From a virus (taxonomy: Duplodnaviria > Caudoviricetes), in IMG/VR virus record IMGVR_UViG_3300000439_000009, positions 1-64,000 of that record: a DNA stretch of 64,000 bases; one strand, 5' to 3'. The notes under the pieces were generated by a model, which was not told the origin of the DNA, did no database searches, and saw only the letters and a program-made list of their open reading frames with translations. Shown one piece after another: positions 6,810 to 41,389 of this stretch. A program made the position numbers and the translations under genes. Position 1 is the stretch's first letter, and the number at the start of each line of letters is the position of its first letter.

Positions 6810-6861
6810 GTATCTCCAAAGATGGGGGGAATTAGCTTTCCCCCCATTATATCATTTTTTA

Positions 6862-15913: not shown

Positions 15914-16150
15914 TTTTATCCCGCCTTTTTAGATCCTAATTATATCATATGTCGTTTTTGTACCCCCTACGTCGTATTTCAAATTCAGAAAATGTTAATA
16001 TTTTTTTTATTTGTATGATCCACGTTTCAAAGCAAAAAGCAATTAGACATAGTGTGCCCATTTGTCTAATCAATTCGGACATTTCGGACACAAATGACTA
16101 GTCAAAGAAAAAATAAATTTCGATTTGTCCTGATATGTCCGTTTTGCGAC

Positions 16151-16179
16151 TTGATTTTTTGGGATTTTTCTGCCATACT
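16151..16179 (+). promoter_or_regulatory. SigA-type promoter opening the early region
   Basis: TTGATT-17-CATACT with TG extension. Confidence 0.55.
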
Positions 16180-16228
16180 TAAGGTATTAGAAAGTTAAGA
16201 AAGGTTCTTAACAAGAAAGGATCAGAAA

Positions 16229-16369
16229 ATGATCACTGTAGAATATGTAGAGTATCTAGATTGCCCTACCTGTAAGGTTCCTGTCCTAGTAGATCAGGAA
16301 TACACTTCACCCGCCCGAATTCTGATAGAATGTCGGAATTGTCTAGATGTGAGCGGAATCACACTCTAG
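16229..16369 (+). CDS. Small Zn-finger protein (46 aa)
   Basis: GAAAGGA RBS; CPTC...CRNC. Confidence 0.55.
   Translation: MITVEYVEYLDCPTCKVPVLVDQEYTSPARILIECRNCLDVSGITL
16348..16363. promoter_or_regulatory. CRP/GlxR box 1
   Basis: TGTGA-GCGGAA-TCACA; promoter TTGATT-17-TAGTAT at 16385-16413. Confidence 0.75.
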
Positions 16370-16529
16370 ATACGGCGTGTCGAGTTGATTTTCCCGACTT
16401 AGTGTGATAGTATTCCACTATACAAATTAAATATAGAAAAATCCTAGTGAGCCTCTAGCAATAGAGCAAATAATCTAGGCAAGGAAAATAGTTAGCACAA
16501 GGCTAACGAATTAAAGAAAGGTTCATAAT

Positions 16530-17401
16530 ATGAACACTATAAATAAGAGTAACAGCCTCCATACTGTTCCCGCCAATTCTACTACCTGCTTATTCTGTAA
16601 AGAATCAGTAGTATTTAGTAAAGGTCTGCGTGCTTGGCAGACTACTAACGGACAAGGTAATGTCCGTTGTTACTTCACTGTGGAGGTAAATAACTAATGA
16701 TTATTCTAACCTATATTGTCCGTACTGTTATGGCACTAGCGTTTGTGCCAATGTGTTACCTAGTGTATGCTATGTATCAAGATTTAAAAACTATTGGAAA
16801 GGATAACTAAATGACTATGACTTACTCATTTGAAAAAAAGTTTGACCCTTGGGCTATCGAGCCCGATGTATTTGATCTGCTTATGGCAGAAGAAGCCGAG
16901 GCAGAAAATGCCAAGGTTAATAATGAAATCTCTATTGAAGATATAGAGGATAGTGAAGTAGAGTTTGATGAGGAATTCGATCTCTAATGCTACACTTCAT
17001 AACTAAAGCACACTACTATGCCCCGCACTTAGTACACGCCCCGCATCATATTGCTTGGCTAAAATCCTCAATTAAACTAACCCACCACTACACACGATAG
17101 GAATTAAATAAATGATGAGCCGTAAAGACTACATAAATGTAGCCGATATTCTAAACGAAAACAAAAATCGAATTGACTCAGAAGTTTTTCACGATCTAGT
17201 AATTGACTTCTCGGATTTCTTTTTTGCAGATAATCCCAACTTCTCGCCAAATCGTTTTGAATTGGCTTGCTATGGAAATGATGAGGGAGGGGATGTAAAG
17301 TAATGGAAGACATTCTCGGATTCTCAAATGCAATCGAGCTGGATCACTTAAATGATGAACAGTTAAAAATCGTTGAAGATATTTTCAAAGATTTTAAATA
17401 A
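16530..17401 (+). CDS. Run of six small early genes (16530..16697, 16697..16810, 16811..16987, 16987..17100, 17112..17303, 17303..17401)
   Basis: Mostly TAATG-coupled ORFs, several with RBSs; 16811..16987 is strongly acidic; 16697..16810 is hydrophobic. Confidence 0.6.
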
Positions 17402-17503
17402 ATAAAAAATGCTCTGAAGTAGGTATAAAATACTTACTTCAGGGCAGGGGCGCGGCCCGATTTGTACCCTTTGTTACGATATGTCCGAATTTCTCCCGAG
17501 TTT

Positions 17504-17519
17504 TGTGAATTTAATCACA
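17504..17519. promoter_or_regulatory. CRP/GlxR box 2
   Basis: TGTGA-ATTTAA-TCACA; promoter TTGATA-17-GATAAT at 17561-17589. Confidence 0.75.
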
Positions 17520-17622
17520 TAGTCTGAGCGTCTCACTATTTAAGATACTCCCGAGTATACTTGATAGTAGCGATATTTTGTGAGATAATACTATTATTAG
17601 AAAATAAAGAAAGGTGGTCAAA

Positions 17623-17817
17623 ATGACTACACTAAATAAAGTAAATATCGGAAAAACCCTTGGAATTTCCGCTAAATTAGAAAATCAAATCGTTCACGAA
17701 TTTAACAATGGTGGATGTACTTCTTCTTATGGCTTATCTACGCCTCAGCGTATAGCCTTATTAAAAATCCTATTGGGTGGAAATGCCCCTAAGTGTGAGT
17801 GTATTCTCTGCCTCTAA
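17623..17817 (+). CDS. Hypothetical early protein
   Basis: GAAAGGTGG RBS; C-terminal CECILC. Confidence 0.6.
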   Translation: MTTLNKVNIGKTLGISAKLENQIVHEFNNGGCTSSYGLSTPQRIALLKILLGGNAPKCECILCL

Positions 17818-17833: not shown

Positions 17834-17855
17834 TGTCAGTGGGCTATGCTATAAT
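17834..17855 (+). promoter_or_regulatory. PafBC-type (RecA-NDp) promoter 1
   Basis: TGTCAGTG-GGCTATGC-TATAAT. Confidence 0.8.
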
Positions 17856-17886
17856 AAATCCGTTAAACAAAAGAAAGGAAGTTAAA

Positions 17887-18442
17887 ATGACTTCACTAAA
17901 AATAAATTGCCAAGAGTGTGGCAAATCCTGCGGAGAGATTTCCGTATATGACGCTCCTTATACTGGGGCAACTACTTGCTGGGAATGCACTTTTAAAAAT
18001 TGCGATCTCTGCTATGGTCAAGGTATCACTGGCTGGGTTAGCCCTGATGGTGATTTTGATTTTGATTATTGCGAATGCAACCCACTTTGCCTAACACTAG
18101 AGGAGGTCAGATAATGACTAATAAAACTACTTTTGAAGTTGCTTGCTTATACTATGAAATTTGTGGTGCAAGCCAAACTTTTGACTCTGCTGAAGAGTAT
18201 GACATCTATGGCGATGACTATGTCTGCCCTGAATGCTATGACCAACAAGAAATGGGAATGTATGGGTGGGCAGACTCAAGCGATGCCTTTCCAATGTCTC
18301 TAGAATATGACGAAGGGTGATATATATGAATCTAGACGAATTTAAAACTTATGTCCAAAACAAGCGTGAGGAATCACGCCTTAAAGGAATGTCAGTGCTA
18401 TCTGCTACAATAACAACCTCAAACCCGAAAGAAGGAAAATAA
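17887..18442 (+). CDS. Three small early genes (17887..18114 Cys-rich, 18114..18320 Cys-rich acidic, 18326..18442)
   Basis: RBSs GAAAGGA and GGAGG; CxxC motifs. Confidence 0.65.
18390..18411 (+). promoter_or_regulatory. PafBC-type promoter 2
   Basis: TGTCAGTG-CTATCTGC-TACAAT. Confidence 0.8.
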
Positions 18443-18443
18443 T

Positions 18444-19265
18444 ATGAAAATGCACGAACTCGATACAACAAACTGGAATGCTTATCCTTTCACAGTTAAT
18501 GGAATTAATTATGTCTCCAAGGTAAAGCCTGATTCTACAATGGCTATGCGAATTTCTCGTGTGCCTGCTCAGATCTTTATTTCTATGAATGAAGATTGTG
18601 TCCGAGAGTTAATCGGTAATGTAACTTCTCCGTCTCTATTAGTTGCAAAACTCTATGAGGTAAATGAAAATGCTAGCGAAGCCGTTATCGAAATTGTCTG
18701 ATAAAGTCCGCCGTATACAGGAGTTAAGGCGTAGCAATTCTGCTACGCCCATCCGCAACAAGAAAAAATATACCCGTAAAACAAAATACAAAAAGGAATA
18801 CTAATATGTCAAATATCTCTACCGCCCTTGCTATCCAAGAAGCCTGCTCTAATGCTGTTTATGCATATGAGTCAATGGAAGTTGCTGCAGAAATTGCACA
18901 ACAAACTGATTTTAATCCTGCCGTCTTGCAATTGTTAATGAAGTACACTGCAATTTTAACTGCAGGCGTTGCAACTAATATGACACAGGTTCTGATGAGT
19001 GAATCTGATTTTAATCATATGATGTCAGAAATGCGTGAACTCGGAGCATTCGAAGGGATCGAAGATGAAAACTAAACTACAGGGCCAAAACATTTTTACA
19101 GAAATTATTTCTGATTATCTTGGCGTAACAATGGACGTTGCATTAATTGTACAAGATGAAATTGATGAAGGTGATTATTTAGATTGGTCCGAAGCATCCA
19201 TTGAAGAAATTGAATTTGCTGCAATGTTAGCTTTTGAAAATTTAAATGTAGATCATAAATTTTAG
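18444..19265 (+). CDS. Four small early genes (18444..18701, 18694..18804, 18806..19075, 19065..19265)
   Basis: Closely coupled ORFs, several with RBSs. Confidence 0.65.
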
Positions 19266-19408
19266 CTGCGACGGGTAGAGAGAATGCAATGGGTCCAGGG
19301 TGGGCCCATTGTTTAAATATGCAAAGCAATGCATAAAGATGCAGGGGCCGCGCCCCGTCAAGCCGACACGCCGTTACGAATGGTCAAAAAAAACTCTGAC
19401 CAGTCAAA

Positions 19409-19424
19409 TGTGATGTGATTCACA
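19409..19424. promoter_or_regulatory. CRP/GlxR box 3
   Basis: TGTGA-TGTGAT-TCACA. Confidence 0.75.
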
Positions 19425-19473
19425 CAACCTGAGCGTCTCATATGCTGGAATTACTGGCTAGTAGGTAGAAAAA

Positions 19474-19495
19474 TGTCGGTGGTGTCGTGTATAAT
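19474..19495 (+). promoter_or_regulatory. PafBC-type promoter 3
   Basis: TGTCGGTG-GTGTCGTG-TATAAT. Confidence 0.8.
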
Positions 19496-19531
19496 TCCAA
19501 CTATTAGAAACAAAGAAAGAAGGTAGCACTT

Positions 19532-20577
19532 ATGCTAATCTCACAAGCCCTAGAAGGCAAATATGTAAAGTCCTCAAAAGGACAAGGCATAATCCAATAT
19601 GCGGATTTCCGTAGAGATATGGAACACTCAACACCCGAAGGTTATCTTGCGTTTGCTTGCAAGGTTCGCCCTACTTATAATCCATCTGTGCATAGATTTA
19701 TTCCAGAAGATTTTTGGACAACAGTTTATGTAGGCATTGACTCAGAATTGGTGGACTAATATGACTATTAAACTTGGTGGGCTAGGGCAGACTATTTCTG
19801 CCTATTGCCCAGTATGCTCAGAAAAGATGACCCATATGTGTATTGCTACACTTGGTGGATTTTCTACTAAAGGTACTATTCGCTATGCGTGGGAATGTAA
19901 TGCTTGCGAATTATCTCTAAAGTCTGACTCAACAGGCTATGCTCACTTACTAACAGAAATGGCTTACTATGCTTAATGAATTAGATAAATTGTGGGAAGA
20001 CTATAAAGAAGCCACTTGGAATACAATGTCGGTGGCTCCTGCTACAATATGGGAAACAAAGGAGAATGACTAATGTATAAACTCACTACCGCCTATGATG
20101 GACAAGCCCCGCATCATACTATCCAATTAGCCGATGCACTCGAAGCGTTTAACTCTTTCGCTAGATGTGTAGACTGGGGGTTCGCTAATGAATATGCGAC
20201 CTATAATCTATCTATGCCAGATGGCAAAATGTATACAAAGAACTTCTATCGTCCGAAAGGTAAATAATTAAATGGGAATAAATATGGCAACAGAACTAGC
20301 AGATGGAACACTTGGATTAGATATGGAAAGTGCTATTGCTATGCACTTGCGTGTTAATCACTATCCTCCCGTACCGACTTCTATGGTGCAGCCTTGCATT
20401 GATGCTATTGATGCATATTGGGAAGAAGACTTGGATCGTAATATCGAATTGCCCGAAGGCGTACTATGGCGAGGAGAAACTTATGCCCCCGCTTATGCAA
20501 TTATCGAAAGTCATCATCTCCAAGCTTGGTGCTCAGAAGATGAGTACCTTAATGAAGTAGACCCAGAGGACTACTAA
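19532..20577 (+). CDS. Five small early genes (19532..19759, 19761..19976, 19969..20073, 20073..20267, 20272..20577)
   Basis: Closely coupled ORFs, several with RBSs. Confidence 0.65.
20027..20048 (+). promoter_or_regulatory. PafBC-type promoter 4
   Basis: TGTCGGTG-GCTCCTGC-TACAAT. Confidence 0.8.
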
Positions 20578-20594
20578 ACTAAATATAATTGTCG

Positions 20595-20610
20595 TGTGAT
20601 GTAACTCACA
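20595..20610. promoter_or_regulatory. CRP/GlxR box 4
   Basis: TGTGA-TGTAAC-TCACA; promoter TGGACA-18-TAAAAT at 20632-20661. Confidence 0.75.
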
Positions 20611-20695
20611 CACGACACGCCCATAGCCAGTTGGACAAAGGTTGGCTGGCTATGGTAAAATACCACCTATAACAACAACAGAAAAGGAAAAAACA

Positions 20696-20860
20696 ATGAC
20701 AATCGGAACAAACACATATCAGGTAGGCGACCTCTTTACCACACAGAAGTCAAAGGTAACTGGCGTTATCAAGGCTATCGAGCCTATCAGCGACACAATG
20801 ACTCGTGTCTTGCTTGATGTAGACGGCGTAGAGCGTTTTACAACAGTTACACTTGCTTAA
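20696..20860 (+). CDS. Small SH3/KOW-like beta protein, paralogue A
   Basis: TYQVGDLFTT...VTG.I...PIS...TRV shared with 21440..21610. Confidence 0.7.
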   Translation: MTIGTNTYQVGDLFTTQKSKVTGVIKAIEPISDTMTRVLLDVDGVERFTTVTLA

Positions 20861-20888
20861 TTAAATAAGTATCGGCTACCCCCACCAA

Positions 20889-20910
20889 TGTCGGTGGGGG
20901 GTGCTATAAT
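20889..20910 (+). promoter_or_regulatory. PafBC-type promoter 5 (overlaps a hairpin)
   Basis: TGTCGGTG-GGGGGTGC-TATAAT; accccccacc...ggtggggggt inverted repeat. Confidence 0.8.
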
Positions 20911-20951
20911 AATCTCTCAAACAACAAACCCGAATAGAAAGTAGAAAACAA

Positions 20952-21368
20952 ATGGCTAGAGCAATCTCCGTTAAAGTAGCAACACCAAAAGTAATTGCTG
21001 CACTAGAATCAAAGTTAGCAGAACTAGAGGCTAAACTTGCAACATCAACTGCAAACGAGGAAGCATACCAAACTGCTTACAAGCAATATCAGACACAGTT
21101 ACAGAACTATTGTGTTGCAAATATCTCACAGGCAACTAACTTCCGTGTATCACACCGAGCATATAATAGTCTAGTGAACATTGACTATGATGTTCCAACT
21201 AACTTGGCTGGATTCCCAGTAGAGCCAAAGCGTGATTTCGAGGTTGTGTATGAACACACAATTACTTCTGCAAGAGAAGAAATCACCAATGCACTTAACA
21301 TCTTGCGTATGACCGACGAGGAATATGTTTCTGCCTCAACTATGAAGTCAATCGCTTCATACCTCTAA
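20952..21368 (+). CDS. Hypothetical early protein
   Basis: 138-aa ORF directly after promoter. Confidence 0.75.
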   Translation: MARAISVKVATPKVIAALESKLAELEAKLATSTANEEAYQTAYKQYQTQLQNYCVANISQATNFRVSHRAYNSLVNIDYDVPTNLAGFPVEPKRDFEVVYEHTITSAREEITNALNILRMTDEEYVSASTMKSIASYL

Positions 21369-21439
21369 ATAAGTAACGACCTGAGCCAAGTCGCTAAACT
21401 GGCTCACACTATAACCCGAATATAGAAAAGGAAAAAACA

Positions 21440-21610
21440 ATGACACTACAAGGATACACATATCAGATAGGTGATCTATTCACAACATCTCGCACAGGTG
21501 TTACAGGTCGCATCACAAAGTTTGCACCAATCTCAAATAAAGTAACACGAGTTCAGTTGCAATTAGCAAATGGCGCAAAGCGTTTTGCAATGGTAAAAAC
21601 TTCTGCGTAA
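21440..21610 (+). CDS. Small SH3/KOW-like beta protein, paralogue B (56 aa)
   Basis: MTLQGYTYQIGDLFTTSRTGVTG...; same agaaaaggaaaaaacaATG leader as 20696. Confidence 0.75.
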   Translation: MTLQGYTYQIGDLFTTSRTGVTGRITKFAPISNKVTRVQLQLANGAKRFAMVKTSA

Positions 21611-21821
21611 ATAAATAATTAGCGGGTCGTGAGTGATAACAGGTAAGTGTCTAAGTAGCCTTAGACCACCCGCTTAATTTTAATTTGACAAAATGTGCAG
21701 CTGGGGGCGCGGCCCGCCCGAAATGTCCGTTTTACGAAGACACTCCCAAATCTCTGAGTTTGACAATGACCAGTCAAACATTGTATACTTCTCCGATGTC
21801 CATAATAATCATAGTGCCCCT

Positions 21822-21837
21822 TGTGATGTTAATCACA
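21822..21837. promoter_or_regulatory. CRP/GlxR box 5
   Basis: TGTGA-TGTTAA-TCACA. Confidence 0.75.
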
Positions 21838-21896
21838 CCCATTGTCTTAGTTGTCGGATTTGTCGCTTTTGTTAAGACTCTCCGTATTAAATAGAT

Positions 21897-21926
21897 TTGA
21901 CTAATGTCGGTGGGTTATGCTAGAAT
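21897..21926 (+). promoter_or_regulatory. PafBC-type promoter 6 with additional -35
   Basis: TTGACT-AA-TGTCGGTG-GGTTATGC-TAGAAT. Confidence 0.8.
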
Positions 21927-21955
21927 AAGGCTTCAACAACAGAAAGAAGGTTCAC

Positions 21956-22990
21956 ATGAACAACACCGTTCATAAGTCCGAAGTAGAGAATGGTTCTGTA
22001 TCATTCGCTCTTGTGGATTCCCGCTCTAATCCTGCATGGCACTCTTATGCAAATAAGATTTTCGATGCAGATACAGAAACCCCAACAGTATCAGAAATTA
22101 TGGATGCTGCTAAACTATCTAATTGGAATGTACGCCTTGAGCCTATCTCCGAATTAGTCCCCGACTATAAGATGGTTACAGAATCTTATCTTGTCGTGCG
22201 TGATAACCCTTACACCGACGGGCAGAAAGATGTTCTCGCCACAGTAGGTTCACGCTATAAAGAAGTGCAGAATGAAGATTTGTTTGCATTCGCACAGAAT
22301 CTTCATGACTCTAATCCAGAAGTCAAAATTGACTCTGCTGGTTCATTCAAGAATGGTCGTGTAGTTTATGGCTCATGGTCTATTCCTAACCAGTTAGTTC
22401 TTGATCCATCTGGTGCTAATGATATAACTAATCTTTATTTAGTTGTTCACACTTCACACGATGGTTCTGTCGCTATTCAAGCAGGTATCACGCCTGTGCG
22501 TGTTAAGTGCCAAAATACACTTAATTTCGCTATGCGTCGTGCTAAGCAATCTTTCAAGATTCGCCACACCGCTACTGTTGATGGCAAGATCGCTGCTGCT
22601 CGTGAGGCTCTAGGTATGTCGGTTGCATACTTCGATGAGTTCTCTAAGCAGGCTAACGAATTGTTCACTCGTGAAGTAACGAATGCACAATTCAGCAACA
22701 TCATCAACACTCTTTACCCTAAGCCAGAAGAAGATAAAAAGGGTGCTATCACTAAGTGGGAAAATAAAGTTGTCCTGCTTGATGAGTTGTACCATAACTC
22801 TCCTACTAATGCTAACATCAAGGGTACAGCATGGGGCGTTGTTAATGCTCTAACTGAGCGTCTTGATTACTTCCGCACTGCTCGTAAAGGTTCTAACGAA
22901 TCTCTCGTTTATTCTGCTTCAGGATTTGATCCTGTTATCACGGCAGAAAAAAATAAAATTGTTAAGCAAGTGTTATCACTAACCGCTTAA
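21956..22990 (+). CDS. DUF932 / TIGR03299-like phage-plasmid protein
   Basis: PAWH, VGSRYKEVQNEDLF, SHDGS, TPVRVKCQNTL, IRHT, GTAWGVVNALTE motifs. Confidence 0.85.
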   Translation: MNNTVHKSEVENGSVSFALVDSRSNPAWHSYANKIFDADTETPTVSEIMDAAKLSNWNVRLEPISELVPDYKMVTESYLVVRDNPYTDGQKDVLATVGSRYKEVQNEDLFAFAQNLHDSNPEVKIDSAGSFKNGRVVYGSWSIPNQLVLDPSGANDITNLYLVVHTSHDGSVAIQAGITPVRVKCQNTLNFAMRRAKQSFKIRHTATVDGKIAAAREALGMSVAYFDEFSKQANELFTREVTNAQFSNIINTLYPKPEEDKKGAITKWENKVVLLDELYHNSPTNANIKGTAWGVVNALTERLDYFRTARKGSNESLVYSASGFDPVITAEKNKIVKQVLSLTA

Positions 22991-22996
22991 TAAATC

Positions 22997-23018
22997 GTGA
23001 GGGGCGAAAGCCCCTCAC
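22997..23018 (+). terminator. GNRA hairpin after DUF932 gene
   Basis: gtgaggggc-gaaa-gcccctcac. Confidence 0.6.
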
Positions 23019-23025
23019 CTCTCTT

Positions 23026-23099
23026 GATTCTATAGATCAATTGGTTAGATCGCTACCCTGTCACGGTAGAGGTTGCGGGTTCAAGTCCCGTTAGAATCG
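23026..23099 (+). tRNA. tRNA-Asp(GUC), copy in early region
   Basis: Acceptor GATTCTA/TAGAATC, anticodon arm CTACC-ctGTCac-GGTAG, T-arm GCGGG-TTCAAGT-CCCGT. Confidence 0.92.
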
Positions 23100-23100
23100 C

Positions 23101-23208
23101 ATGGAAAATAAAAAAGTTGTAATATGTCCAAAGTGCAAAGCTGAAATCCAGGTGCGATCAAACTTTGCACACGACACGCTGAATAATCACTTGACAAAAT
23201 GTAAGTGA
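23101..23208 (+). CDS. Tiny Zn-finger-like ORF (35 aa)
   Basis: CPKC...H...H...C; starts immediately after the tRNA. Confidence 0.4.
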   Translation: MENKKVVICPKCKAEIQVRSNFAHDTLNNHLTKCK

Positions 23209-23221
23209 TGGGGGCGCGGGG

Positions 23222-23237
23222 TGTGAGTAAAATCACA
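23222..23237. promoter_or_regulatory. CRP/GlxR box 6
   Basis: TGTGA-GTAAAA-TCACA. Confidence 0.75.
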
Positions 23238-23324
23238 ATTACGAAGGGGTATAAAATCTCCCTAAAGTTAGACATTAAGATGATATATGTCAAACCCTTT
23301 ACGATTAAACAAGTATAGGCTATG

Positions 23325-23354
23325 TGGACAAATGTCAGTGGGGTATGCTAGAAT
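23325..23354 (+). promoter_or_regulatory. PafBC-type promoter 7 with additional -35
   Basis: TGGACA-AA-TGTCAGTG-GGGTATGC-TAGAAT. Confidence 0.8.
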
Positions 23355-23385
23355 ATGCCCTATAACTACGAACAAAGGAGATATA

Positions 23386-24102
23386 ATGCCAAACTGGGTT
23401 TATAATGGTCTTACTATTGAAGGTAACCCTGAATCTGTAACTAAATTAGTTAATCAGATGAATCAACCATATACACGTCATTTTGAAGATGCGTGGGATA
23501 TGAAGACTAAGACTATGGGTCCACAGGATGTTACTTATTCTAATCCTGTATTTGCTTTCTGGAATATCATTAGTCCCACCGACCTTGATGCATATGTAAA
23601 GCAACCTGACCATTCCCTGCCTATTCAAGAAGCATTGCTATTTAAAGGCGACCATTGGTACGACTGGAATGTACGTAACTGGGGCACCAAGTGGGATGTA
23701 GCCGTATCTGATGACAACGAGCATCCTGAGACATATATGGAGGGCCCTACAGAAAACGGTGAGAATCTAGTAGTCTACTATAACTTTAATACTGCTTGGT
23801 CTCGCCCAATTTCTGCTTTAGAGAATTTATCTGCACAGTACCCTGACCTTCTACTTACTTTATCTTATGAAGAAGAGACAGGCTGGGGTGGGGAATGTGA
23901 ATTCCTGCGTGGTAAATATATTGCTGGTTTAGAATATGAAACCAAGTGCAATGAATGTGATGCATATGACTGTATGGAGTATTGCGAAGATTGCGAAAAT
24001 GATGTATGCTCTGTTTGTAGTTTTGGGGCAGAGGAAGAGTGTCAGTCCCATATGGTAGAATCAGAACTTCCGCCTAAAGTACAAGTTACGAAGAATGCAT
24101 AA
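23386..24102 (+). CDS. YubB/DUF1281 ferredoxin-like domain protein
   Basis: MPNWVYN, WYDWNVRNWGTKWD, FNTAWS, YEEETGWGG; AAGGAG RBS. Confidence 0.8.
   Translation: MPNWVYNGLTIEGNPESVTKLVNQMNQPYTRHFEDAWDMKTKTMGPQDVTYSNPVFAFWNIISPTDLDAYVKQPDHSLPIQEALLFKGDHWYDWNVRNWGTKWDVAVSDDNEHPETYMEGPTENGENLVVYYNFNTAWSRPISALENLSAQYPDLLLTLSYEEETGWGGECEFLRGKYIAGLEYETKCNECDAYDCMEYCEDCENDVCSVCSFGAEEECQSHMVESELPPKVQVTKNA
24040..24061 (+). promoter_or_regulatory. PafBC-type promoter, one-mismatch copy
   Basis: TGTCAGTC-CCATATGG-TAGAAT. Confidence 0.55.
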
Positions 24103-24731
24103 TGGAAAAGCTAGTTTCAACTAAGTATACCTTTGTATGCGATCCTGATTATTGTGATTGTTTAATTGAACTTACTACATCGGATAAGTTTGGATTTCCC
24201 GCCACTGTGACAAACATCACATGCCCTTGCGGGCGTGTCTTGGAACCTTTGTCAGTGGTAGATGCTACAATACTCCCTATAACCGAACAGAAAGAAGAAA
24301 CAATGGAAACCATGCAGGAGACCTACAACCCAAATGCTTTGGTCACTTACAAGAAGATTGTAGATGGTCAGGCTGAATATGTTACTACCAAGGTAACAGA
24401 ACTTGACTGGGCTATGGAACGTGCCCGTCAAGATGCAAAGATGGCTATGATTAGTTATGAGAAGGAAGTAGCACTCGAAGAACTAATTAAAGAGAACTAC
24501 CTTGAATCTGGTGATCAGGGAACTCTTCTGCAGATTGCAGAACTCTTTAGTATCTCATTAACTAAAGATGTTGAGTTTGTTGCAACTATCGAAATCTCAG
24601 GAACTGTTACAGTTGATCTAACTGATGAGGATGCTTTGCAGACTCTATTGGAAAATAGCGTACATGTTTCTTCATATGATGGAGATCTAGATGTATCTGA
24701 TTATGTATTAGTCAACTATGAGGAGCGTTAA
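24102..24731 (+). CDS. Hypothetical acidic protein; Cys-rich N-terminus and probable internal start at 24303
   Basis: Internal promoter and purine-rich RBS precede in-frame ATG 24303. Confidence 0.7.
   Translation: MEKLVSTKYTFVCDPDYCDCLIELTTSDKFGFPATVTNITCPCGRVLEPLSVVDATILPITEQKEETMETMQETYNPNALVTYKKIVDGQAEYVTTKVTELDWAMERARQDAKMAMISYEKEVALEELIKENYLESGDQGTLLQIAELFSISLTKDVEFVATIEISGTVTVDLTDEDALQTLLENSVHVSSYDGDLDVSDYVLVNYEER
24206..24271 (+). promoter_or_regulatory. Intragenic cassette: CRP box 7, GGCGTGTC box, PafBC-type promoter 8
   Basis: TGTGA-CAAACA-TCACA (24206), GGCGTGTC (24232), TGTCAGTG-GTAGATGC-TACAAT (24250-24271). Confidence 0.8.
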
Positions 24732-25657
24732 TGGCTATTGTTACAATTGATGCTGGCTCCCGCCAAACGGCGGGAGCATTAATGGTAGAGGCCTGGAAGC
24801 ACGGGGTAGAGGTAGAAATGCTACATGATAACCAGATGGAACTAACATGTGCATATGATGACAAGATGAATAAGGTCTTAAATAAATATAAGGGTGTCAA
24901 AGTCCTACACACAGAACTAATTAAGGAGATATTTGAATGACACTTATAGAACTAATTAATTTAATCTATACCGATATTGACGGGCATGCAAATGAATGTG
25001 ACTGCAACATATGTATAACTATGGATATTGTACAGGAATATATCCAGCGATATCACCTTGACAAGGTGGATGCTGGTGAGGAGATATTTAAATGAATGAT
25101 CCACTAATTGAATATATCAATTTACATATAATTAGTTTAAAACAAGATCTTGAGGATGCTCAAAACAATGTCCCTATTTCAGAAGATGAGTACTATGAAT
25201 CAGATTCTTATTATAACGGGTCTATAGAGACTGCTGAGCATATCCTTGACATGGCCCGTCAATTTGACGAGCAGTCCCTTTATATGGTAGGATAACGCCC
25301 ATGGATATAACAACACAGGAACGTATAGATATGCTAGTGGATGTAGAGATTAGTTTAACTAATTACTCTAATTCAAAAGCCAATTACCGTCCCGCTTTTG
25401 GTGATATTGCCGCTTATCATACATTGTTAAGTTTGTATGAGATGGACTATAGCGATATGGAGCCTGAGTACTTATGGCGCAAGAAGCCTGATGAGATCAT
25501 GACGGTAGTCATTGATGAGAATCATATCTTCTCACTTGAATACGGGTGGGATGACTTATATGAATCAGTCCGTGAATGGATTGTAGAAAAGGGTTTCGTC
25601 GTACATTGCGACGAATTAGATGAAGAAGAATACCAACAACTAATGGAGGCAAAATAA
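24731..25657 (+). CDS. Small early genes (24731..24940, 25092..25295, 25301..25657; the latter two acidic)
   Basis: ORF track; TTGACG-18-TAGGAT promoter at 25264-25293. Confidence 0.65.
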
Positions 25658-25658
25658 T

Positions 25659-25856
25659 ATGGCAACAAAGGCAAAGTCAACAGCAGTACAAACAACACCA
25701 GCACAGTCCCCACGTGAATTCCTAGTTTCAAAGGGCTTTACACCAGGGGCTCGTGGTCGCTTTAGCAAAGACATGGTCCTGGCCCTACAGGCTGCAGGTT
25801 ATCCTGTCAAGGCTCCAAAGGAGCGTTCAAAGGTGGTTTCAACCCCTTTAGCGTAA
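25659..25856 (+). CDS. Lsr2 C-terminal DNA-binding-domain-like protein
   Basis: PREFLVSKGFTPGARGRFSKDMVLAL matches the Lsr2 RE(W)...G..V..RGR AT-hook pattern. Confidence 0.65.
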   Translation: MATKAKSTAVQTTPAQSPREFLVSKGFTPGARGRFSKDMVLALQAAGYPVKAPKERSKVVSTPLA

Positions 25857-26059
25857 ACCCTTACCAAGATGTGCCCCCAGTCAGAGTCTCTCGTACACTT
25901 TACGGTATGGACAATCTGGGGGTACGCATTGGGTACGTAATGTGCGGGGATTGCGAAAAGCACATGTCAAATTGTAATTGTGAAGGTGGAGTAAAGGCTC
26001 CATCTCAAATAGTGAGAGCACTAGACAAACTCGTTAGAATATGATAGGATAGGGGACTT

Positions 26060-26765
26060 ATGCAAAGTATAAACCAAAAGTATGTTAAACAGACTAATGA
26101 TATGTTACTTAACGCAGAGTCTAATCTAGAACTAATTGCTACTCAAATACACAGATTACCTGTTAGAGAGCAGCATAGATATCTTAGACTTGTTTTAAGT
26201 TATATAGATGTATTGTCTAAAGCCAAGTTGGCTACTATGCGTGATTCTATTGCGCTATGCAAGGAACTAATGGAAGTAATTAACCTATACTATGAGGAGA
26301 CAGAATAATGGGAGCAAGAACTAATTATACAATCATCACTACATCTAACCCCGCCCAAAACCTAAACGTTTATGCACACTGGGATGGCACAGAGTCAGTG
26401 GCGATTATGCAGGCTGCTATCAAGGCCGCTATGCCCCGTATCAAGACACGTGATACATCCTATGCCACTCGTATCCTAGTGGACCAGCTGACCAAACACG
26501 GGCGGGATTCTGAGACAGGCTATGGTATCTACATTGGAGAAGAAGTAGATCATGAAGAGCAATATGAATATAAGGAGATTAACTTAATTAATAATACAGT
26601 TACAGTTGGCTCTATGACATTCGAACTTAATCAATTTGTTGAGGTGCTAGTATGAGCCATAACCATAGTTGGGAATGCTCAGATGTCCCCGCAAATTATT
26701 ACTGTGCTTGTGGATCAGAGGGATACTATAACTCAGTTGACAAGACTATAAATGCAGTGGTATAA
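26060..26765 (+). CDS. Last early genes (26060..26308, 26308..26655, 26652..26765)
   Basis: Coupled ORFs; TAGACA...TAGGAT promoter at 26022-26050. Confidence 0.65.
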
Positions 26766-26849
26766 TTATACAACGAGATAGGGCGTTCAGGCAAGTCTGC
26801 CAAGTCCATTATAACCTCCACAGGTTCGGGTCCTGTGGAGGTTTTTTTT
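26737..26849 (+). ncRNA. Candidate ~75-nt small RNA with own promoter and terminator
   Basis: TTGACA-18-TATAAT (26737-26766), no ORF, strong terminator 26813-26849. Confidence 0.45.
26813..26849 (+). terminator. Intrinsic terminator closing the early region
   Basis: aacctccacagg-ttcgggt-cctgtggaggtt followed by a T run. Confidence 0.85.
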
Positions 26850-41283: not shown

Positions 41284-41315
41284 ACTACTCCTTATATAAG
41301 AAGGCTTGCGCCTTG

Positions 41316-41389
41316 CGATCTCAACGGGACTTGAACCCGCAACCTCCACCGTGACAGGGTGGCGATCTAACCAATTGATCTATGAGATC
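41316..41389 (-). tRNA. tRNA-Asp(GUC), cluster copy
   Basis: CCACC-ctGTCac-GGTGG. Confidence 0.92.

Follow-up and report, generated by a model that had tools for sequence, protein, structure and literature searches.

PafBC-type promoter elements repeated along a putative early gene island of a lake phage family

Why would a virulent-type phage repeat, along one island of small genes, a promoter design known from the DNA-damage response of Actinobacteria, and which factor reads it? The question is raised by the IMG/VR virus record IMGVR_UViG_3300000439_000009 (106,853 bp; 99% complete according to CheckV; 36% guanine plus cytosine, G+C), the first 64 kb of which form the stretch analysed here, hereafter the window. 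The genes from about 12.8 to 26.7 kb all point rightward and nearly all others in the genome leftward, including those for DnaE polymerase, DnaB, a class II ribonucleotide reductase, WhiB and seven of the eight tRNA genes of the window. Within the rightward island, from 17.8 to 24.3 kb, nine promoters carry a TGTCRG box centred near position -26. This is a known promoter type with a new bearer and a new use. The -26 box is probably read by the host's PafBC, a conclusion drawn from sequence comparison. The fuller proposition is about evenly poised: that a widespread family of virulent lake actinophages lacks an early-gene activator of its own and runs its whole takeover island through host PafBC, with single-stranded DNA (ssDNA) made by infection as the start signal.

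The motif TGTCRGTG-N8-TAnnnT occurs at eight exact sites, all on the + strand, as described in the initial annotation: P1 (17834-17855), P2 (18390-18411), P3 (19474-19495), P4 (20027-20048), P5 (20889-20910), P6 (21905-21926), P7 (23333-23354) and P9 (24250-24271). Shuffled sequences gave an expectation of 0.07, and none of 100 shuffles reached eight. The annotation had seen no copy outside the early region; indeed, the 8-mer TGTCRGTG is found nowhere else on either strand of the 106,853-bp genome. It had also listed a one-mismatch copy, P8 (24040-24061, + strand; TGTCAGTCCC...TGGTAGAAT), which counts as a full family member because its TGTCAGTCCC box is common in relatives. A weight matrix built from related phages, with near-identical ones left out, recovers nine sites at 24-34 bits, the shuffled-genome maximum being 16.6 and the next real site scoring 11.

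Each of the nine combines a box of the form TGTCRG-W-S-S (W, A or T; S, G or C) with a near-consensus extended -10 (TGnTAnAAT), and most have no -35. The two -35-like hexamers previously noted, TTGACT at 21897 (P6) and TGGACA at 23325 (P7), are real, each being separated from its -10 by 18 nt. The sites had been described as lying shortly upstream of an ATG, usually with a ribosome-binding site (RBS). Consistently, eight of the nine have a predicted leader of 18-35 nt followed by a purine-rich RBS and an ATG; behind P8 the ATG, at 24102, is 34 nt downstream and the RBS is weak. These putative promoters are most likely working ones, used by the host's housekeeping RNA polymerase. P1 joins the -26 box TGTCAGTG to the extended -10 TGCTATAAT (33.7 bits; predicted transcription start near 17862). 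Several promoters are embedded in the 3' end of the preceding small open reading frame (ORF), such as P2 in the end of a 38-amino-acid (aa) ORF (33.4 bits) and P4 in that of a 34-aa ORF (32.0 bits). P3, with TGTCGGTG and a TATAAT -10 (23.8 bits), lies downstream of a long regulatory cassette containing a CRP-type palindrome at 19409. P5 scores 28.8 bits and P7 32.2 bits, and P6 was recovered by both motif and weight matrix. P8 (26.4 bits) falls inside the end of a 238-aa gene, and P9 (28.4 bits) lies inside the ORF at 24102-24731, upstream of an in-frame RBS and ATG at 24303.

The extended -10 is common to promoters elsewhere in the phage. TGnTATAAT occurs 21 times in the window against 6.5 expected, nearly always on the local gene strand (17 of the 21 on the - strand), and intergenic extended -10 promoters outside the island take the form TGATATAAT or TGGTATAAT, examples on the - strand being those at 6846, 9674, 12793, 31980, 32567, 42863, 47570 and 60216. 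None of the extended -10 promoters outside the island in the window carries the TGTCRG box; the phage thus has two promoter classes, and the box is the distinguishing mark of the island. The first stretch of the island (16000-17817, + strand) consists of small genes without -26 boxes and has ordinary -35/-10-type sites, e.g., TTGATA-17-GATAAT at 17561.

The scan of related phages that the initial annotation had proposed extends the element to a family. Fifty IMG/VR loci were recovered with the DUF932 protein encoded in the island (50-99% identity), and the element is present in all 50. Strict sites number 299 on the gene strand, with none on the other strand and none in a reversed-sequence control. 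The published core, TGTCRG-N10-TAnnnT, gives 469 distinct gene-strand sites and one on the other strand; these sites were selected with the hexamer as anchor and are no independent test of the box core itself. The spacing is rigid, since 469 of 645 distinct gene-strand TGTCRG hexamers have TAnnnT at exactly N10. For the remaining spacings the counts do not rise above background, being 3-10 each for 6-9, 11, 13 and 14 nt and 31 for N12. The family logo reads aa-TGTC-[A over G]-G-[T/a]-[G/C]-[C/G]-c ... TG-n-TA-t-AAT, and its -35 position holds only 0.03-0.19 bit. In five near-complete relatives, the sites that have the extended -10 occupy a single one-strand block of about 8-14 kb, and the few matches elsewhere are without that context; one relative has up to 21 relaxed matches. 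In 44 of the 50 loci, the promoter before DUF932 has been retained in the orthologous position, and its spacer and flanks drift. Conservation of the box and the -10 amid drifting surroundings therefore points to selection on a two-part signal and not to a conserved repeat. Among the remaining six loci, three have TGTCAC, one is cut, and two (L020 and L021) have a plain TTGACA -35 in place of the box with the -10 unchanged, which shows that the box and -35 designs are interchangeable in evolution.

The two-part design is that of a cellular promoter class. The in vivo PafBC motif reads tGTCgg(N10)tA(N3)T, its 3' part being the SigA -10 and its 5' part lying at -23 to -28, without a -35 (PMC8635444). 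The GTC triplet is read by PafB, and PafBC is placed between SigA region 4 and the DNA, a mode of action called 'sigma adaptation' (PMC8635444). PafBC is activated by short ssDNA bound to its WYL domains (PMC11804915). The geometry of the phage element equals the published motif to the base, and TGTCRG with an invariant GTC triplet is found at nine of nine sites. As in the PafBC promoters (RecA-NDp, recA P1-type) of Mycobacterium and other Actinobacteria (PMC8635444, PMC11804915, PMC8223512), the same TGTCRG core with its GTC stands N10 from TAnnnT, near -26, with no -35 consensus, a housekeeping -10 and W-S-S after the hexamer. Unlike them, the phage sites lie on a virulent-type phage rather than before chromosomal repair genes, and 9 to about 20 are gathered per genome in one island. 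Their -10 is a near-perfect extended TGnTAtAAT instead of a TAGCGT-like one, A prevails over G at the R position (87%), and some copies add a -35-like hexamer.

The likeness goes beyond the hexamer. Public metagenome contigs were scanned for the core motif followed by a start codon and then by codons of the RecA signature GKGS(V/I)M(R/K)LG, which gave at least 120 matches; 80 loci were retrieved and 74 distinct recA-linked sites compared. Most of these loci exceed 60% G+C and read TGTCGG(T/A)(G/C)(G/C)c...TAGCGT. Position +6 after TGTCRG is A or T in 88% of the recA set and 96% of the phage set, position +7 is G or C in 90% and 93%, and position +8 is G or C in 96% and 94%, respectively. This W-S-S pattern at +6 to +8, which the scan pattern had left free, is common to both sets, as are the sub-variants TGG, TGC and ACCC, and both sets deviate strongly from their respective base compositions. 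Among the actinobacterial recA matches, those of lowest G+C (50-53%) have RecA proteins that cluster with Aquiluna sp., Microbacteriaceae and Actinomycetota metagenome-assembled genomes (MAGs); planktonic actinobacteria therefore carry the motif before recA. A separate observation concerns locus L104, where a Chloroflexota-like recA (92% identical to the RecA of a Chloroflexota MAG) is preceded, at 1929-1950, by TGTCGGTGG-N..-TACCCT; this site may be due to chance or may be a related WYL-type promoter outside Actinobacteria. A search for WYL homologues within the 80 recA loci found none.

Homology places the host among the Actinobacteria. The WhiB gene of the phage (36059-36379, - strand; E 1.5e-10) has 142 phage matches, all from Streptomyces, Rhodococcus or Mycobacterium phages, with 45-52% identity among the best matches listed. 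The DnaE protein shares 56% identity with its counterpart in Streptomyces phage BillNye, and the DUF932 protein 50% with that of Samisti12. WhiB and the Streptomyces-phage homologues thus make the host an actinobacterium, judged by homology at the level of the phylum, and the phage a low-G+C aquatic relative of Stanwilliamsviridae. The Samisti12 and BillNye segments have 53.6% G+C and Streptomyces has about 72%; because this phage lineage runs far below its hosts, the 36% G+C of the lake phage does not fix its host. When genome contigs were searched with the phage WhiB, no actinobacterial genome was returned. The matches were confined to two phage-like contigs (L061 and L062; CAILDT010000882.1 and JBBALJ010000049.1), whose WhiB genes are 62-67% identical to that of the phage and which are binned in 'Bacteroidia' MAGs of 3.6-4.2 Mb. 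These MAGs hold no other WhiB, and the contigs are probably mis-binned low-G+C phage DNA. As for WYL proteins in lake bacteria, the entries listed in the supplements of PMC6789036 include one HTH (helix-turn-helix)-WYL-WCX protein in the streamlined lake bacterium Rhodoluna lacicola and none for Planktophila or Nanopelagicus.

On the phage side, no candidate of a recognised type stands ready to read the box. The WYL domain (PF13280) is absent from this genome and its 50 relatives, 7 of which are at least 90% complete. Sigma-70 regions 2 and 4 have no match in this phage genome, and AsiA/MotA (PF09010, PF09158) have none at E <= 1 in the whole genome. A model can be proposed in which the box would be read by the host PafB/PafC heterodimer, the WYL-domain activator of Actinobacteria, which, once bound to ssDNA, would slot between sigma-A region 4 and the promoter DNA by sigma adaptation. 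One island of about 35 small genes, including those for DUF932 and an Api92-like protein, would in this way be tied to the ssDNA alarm of the host. Infection itself could plausibly trip the alarm, whether the linear DNA is resected on entry or the signal comes from the products of the first genes or from phage replication. Four points of the model, namely PafBC as the reader, its presence in the host, the early timing of the island and infection as the trigger, are ones that we infer. The PafBC interpretation of the initial annotation is partly supported, by the motif geometry, the recA-like flank preferences, the general lack of a -35, the housekeeping-type extended -10, the missing phage WYL protein and the actinobacterial host; the terms 'early' and 'takeover' are deduced here from gene size, orientation and homology.

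Several observations weigh against PafBC as the reader, or against a strict dependence on it. In the recA scan, the proper null treats every recA gene as one trial, so that stray matches are expected. Indeed, the two matches of lowest G+C are not actinobacterial, their RecA being affiliated with Balneolaceae (L110, 43%) and Chloroflexota-like (L104, 46%); both were dropped as evidence on the host. The 80 retrieved loci include no match from the acI lineage (41-48% G+C) and show neither pafBC nor a PafBC-type promoter in a low-G+C lake lineage such as Nanopelagicales. No motif enrichment is seen in Samisti12, in BillNye or in three of four other actinophages sampled; the lineage to which the phage belongs is thus not characterised by the motif as a whole. 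A basal level of transcription probably comes from the extended -10 by itself, and a -35-like hexamer accompanies two of the nine promoters, so that activator dependence may be partial. Finally, a phage protein could bind the box, because most island proteins have no known fold.

This last point leads to the rival that the box is read by a phage-encoded protein of unknown fold, either a MotA/AsiA-like activator made from the box-less genes at 16.0-17.8 kb or a later-acting repressor. Ordinary promoters serve the first 1.8 kb of the island, from which such a factor could come. Conserved small proteins without a family match are at hand (the 63-aa 'MMTRKDY' protein in 46 of 48 relatives and a basic 46-aa protein in 41 of 48), and most of these small genes are missing from the cultured relatives without the motif. 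However, besides the missing WYL, sigma, AsiA and MotA homologues, the conserved upstream candidate MMTRKDY is acidic and multi-copy, unlike a DNA binder. A phage-specific factor would have no reason to copy the resemblance to cellular recA promoters beyond the core hexamer, and the rigid N10 fits a factor docked on RNA polymerase rather than a free operator. A phage-encoded reader is therefore rather unlikely. It is distinctly improbable that another host factor does the reading, be it a second, SiwR-like WYL regulator or a contact, peculiar to the lineage, that the housekeeping sigma or RbpA makes. In its favour, the host is placed at phylum level only, several WYL regulators are found in many Actinobacteria (PMC6789036), and SiwR of M. 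smegmatis is a WYL activator that also acts through the -26 region (PMC10693628). Yet SiwR recognises an imperfect palindrome of 19 bp in which a GGA triplet is conserved, and it serves a single local operon, whereas the phage box is non-palindromic and keeps the GTC read by PafB; and, being missing from the other promoters of the phage, it is not a general sigma element. A WhiB-dependent promoter class was rejected as well, the phage whiB lying in an opposite-strand module at 36 kb. WhiB7-type contacts are made to AT-rich DNA upstream of the -35, not to a G+C-rich -26 box.

The two other rivals grant the boxes a lesser part in transcription. The boxes could mainly titrate PafBC, the nine high-affinity copies blunting the damage or defence response of the host as the phage genome replicates, with island transcription secondary. 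The number of near-consensus sites per genome (9 here, up to 21 relaxed ones in a relative) would suit a sponge, as would a link between PafBC and mycobacteriophage resistance (Rafique 2025, as cited in PMC12848934). A pure decoy, however, would need neither promoter register nor strand, and every site lies on the coding strand in promoter register before an RBS and an ATG; a mainly titrating role is highly improbable, although the decoy and promoter roles of the boxes do not exclude each other. That the repeats are non-regulatory, marking recombination sites or the boundaries of reshuffled gene cassettes and resembling promoters by chance, is scarcely credible. The island is indeed mosaic and many of its genes occur in a minority of relatives, but only the box and the -10 are conserved, with spacer and flanks varying freely, and the sites keep to one strand and to a constant distance from the start codons.

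Reading by host PafBC also places the island relative to other phage strategies. T4 middle promoters, with a MotA box at -30 and a -10, are alike in that a box replaces the -35 and the host primary sigma reads the -10, and they form a distinct temporal class, as proposed here. T4, however, encodes both the activator and the co-activator itself and remodels region 4 of sigma, whereas the lake phage has no AsiA, MotA or WYL homologue and its box is that of a host activator. The SOS-coupled switches of temperate phages (LexA/RecA) likewise tie the phage programme to a host ssDNA or damage signal, but they act through loss of a repressor in a lysogen; the lake phage encodes no integrase or resolvase, and its lytic genes would be linked to the signal by positive activation. 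A cultured counterpart is the terminal-repeat block of small genes of Stanwilliamsviridae (Samisti12, BillNye), which has a homologous DUF932 gene, and homologues of the WhiB and DnaE proteins occur in kin such as Moab, Tomas and BillNye. Box enrichment is seen in neither Samisti12 nor BillNye, and the lake branch acquired or kept the box. A Mycobacterium, an Arthrobacter and a Brevibacterium phage with DUF932 show no enrichment either, so that the box is tied neither to DUF932 nor to the backbone. Among cultured phages, Megablast found no match to the island. Microbacterium phage Appa (NC_047972.1) has two PafBC-type sites, at 22950 and 28459 (TGTCGGTGGCC..., TGTCGGTGCCC...), the latter box lying 58 nt before ssb and the former inside ruvC, 157 nt before recE/recT, which suggests scattered use of PafBC-type promoters by actinophages. 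The initial annotation knew of no lytic phage regulon built on PafBC, and a literature search found no description of PafBC-type phage promoters or of such a regulon.

Which genes would come under this control? Island products are mostly of 35-140 aa and belong to no family, the exceptions being the DUF932 protein (344 aa), the DUF1281_C protein and a methyltransferase further left; no function for the small proteins emerged from PHROGs or, where a product was scanned, from Pfam. Behind P1 (17887-18442, all genes of this block being on the + strand) lie genes for 75 aa (Cys-rich; scanned without a family match), 68 aa and 38 aa, and behind P2 (18444-19265) for 85 aa, the very basic 46-aa protein (41 of 48 relatives), 89 aa and 66 aa. 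P3 is followed by genes for 75, 70 and 34 aa (19532-20073), and P4 (20073-20860) by genes for 64, 101 and 54 aa, of which the first and the last are each found in 46 of 48 relatives and the last has its own -35/-10-like site at 20632. P5 precedes genes for 138 aa (44 of 48 relatives; all Pfam matches sub-threshold) and 56 aa (20952-21610). The 54-aa gene (20696-20860) and the 56-aa gene (21440-21610) flank the 138-aa gene, are each present in 44-46 of 48 relatives and have products with similar opening residues (MTIGTNTYQVGDLFTT..., MTLQGYTYQIGDLFTT...). The 56-aa product looks like a paralogue of the 54-aa one, judged by those residues only. P6 precedes the most conserved gene of the island, that for the DUF932 protein (21956-22990; 48 of 48 relatives), and a hairpin (22997-23018) lies downstream of this gene. 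P7 precedes the gene for the 238-aa protein with a DUF1281_C (Api92-like ferredoxin-like) domain (23386-24102). The last genes (24102-26655), for 209/142 aa and then 69, 52, 67, 118, 65, 82 and 115 aa, have no further -26 boxes, and the island closes in a convergent gap with a strong terminator (26813-26843).

The island would be an early, host-takeover region, judging by the size and orientation of its genes and by homology to the block found in the terminal repeat of Streptomyces phages. The Samisti12 record has two copies of the DUF932 gene, interpreted as a terminal repeat; the gene is situated 1.2-2.2 kb from the end of the genome, among small genes that all run in one direction. One-direction blocks of small genes are host-takeover modules in other large virulent phages, such as SPO1 and T5.

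Other features accompany the promoters. The small acidic family MMTRKDY...DNxxF..RF..AC (55-65 aa), represented in the window at 17112-17303, has one to three island copies in nearly every relative (L012-L059) and no Pfam or PHROG match. Seven perfect TGTGA-N6-TCACA palindromes of the CRP/GlxR type lie between 16348 and 24221 of the window, all in the island (0.09 expected). Five of the seven stand in intergenic cassettes, 55-90 nt upstream of promoters, and some of these cassettes also contain G+C-rich GGGGCGCGGCCC boxes. A tRNA-Asp (GTC) gene (23026-23100, + strand), just past the DUF932 terminator hairpin, is the only tRNA gene in the island; a second tRNA-Asp gene is found in the main tRNA cluster (41315-41389).

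The established role of PafBC is to guard the DNA of actinobacteria, and WYL regulators are familiar as switches in the defence against phages. If the PafBC reading is true, this picture would be reversed, the alarm of the cell for foreign or damaged DNA being the ignition key of the invader. The island would then be the first phage regulon built on sigma adaptation. It would also represent, after T4 MotA/AsiA, a second and mechanistically distinct class of phage promoters that bypass the -35, here without a phage factor. The promoters are short and portable, and can be tested directly in Mycobacterium smegmatis, for which pafBC mutants and in vitro systems exist. Phages of this family are abundant in lakes, and their hosts would be hard-to-culture actinobacteria; a marker that reveals early genes and host phylum from sequence would be useful in itself.

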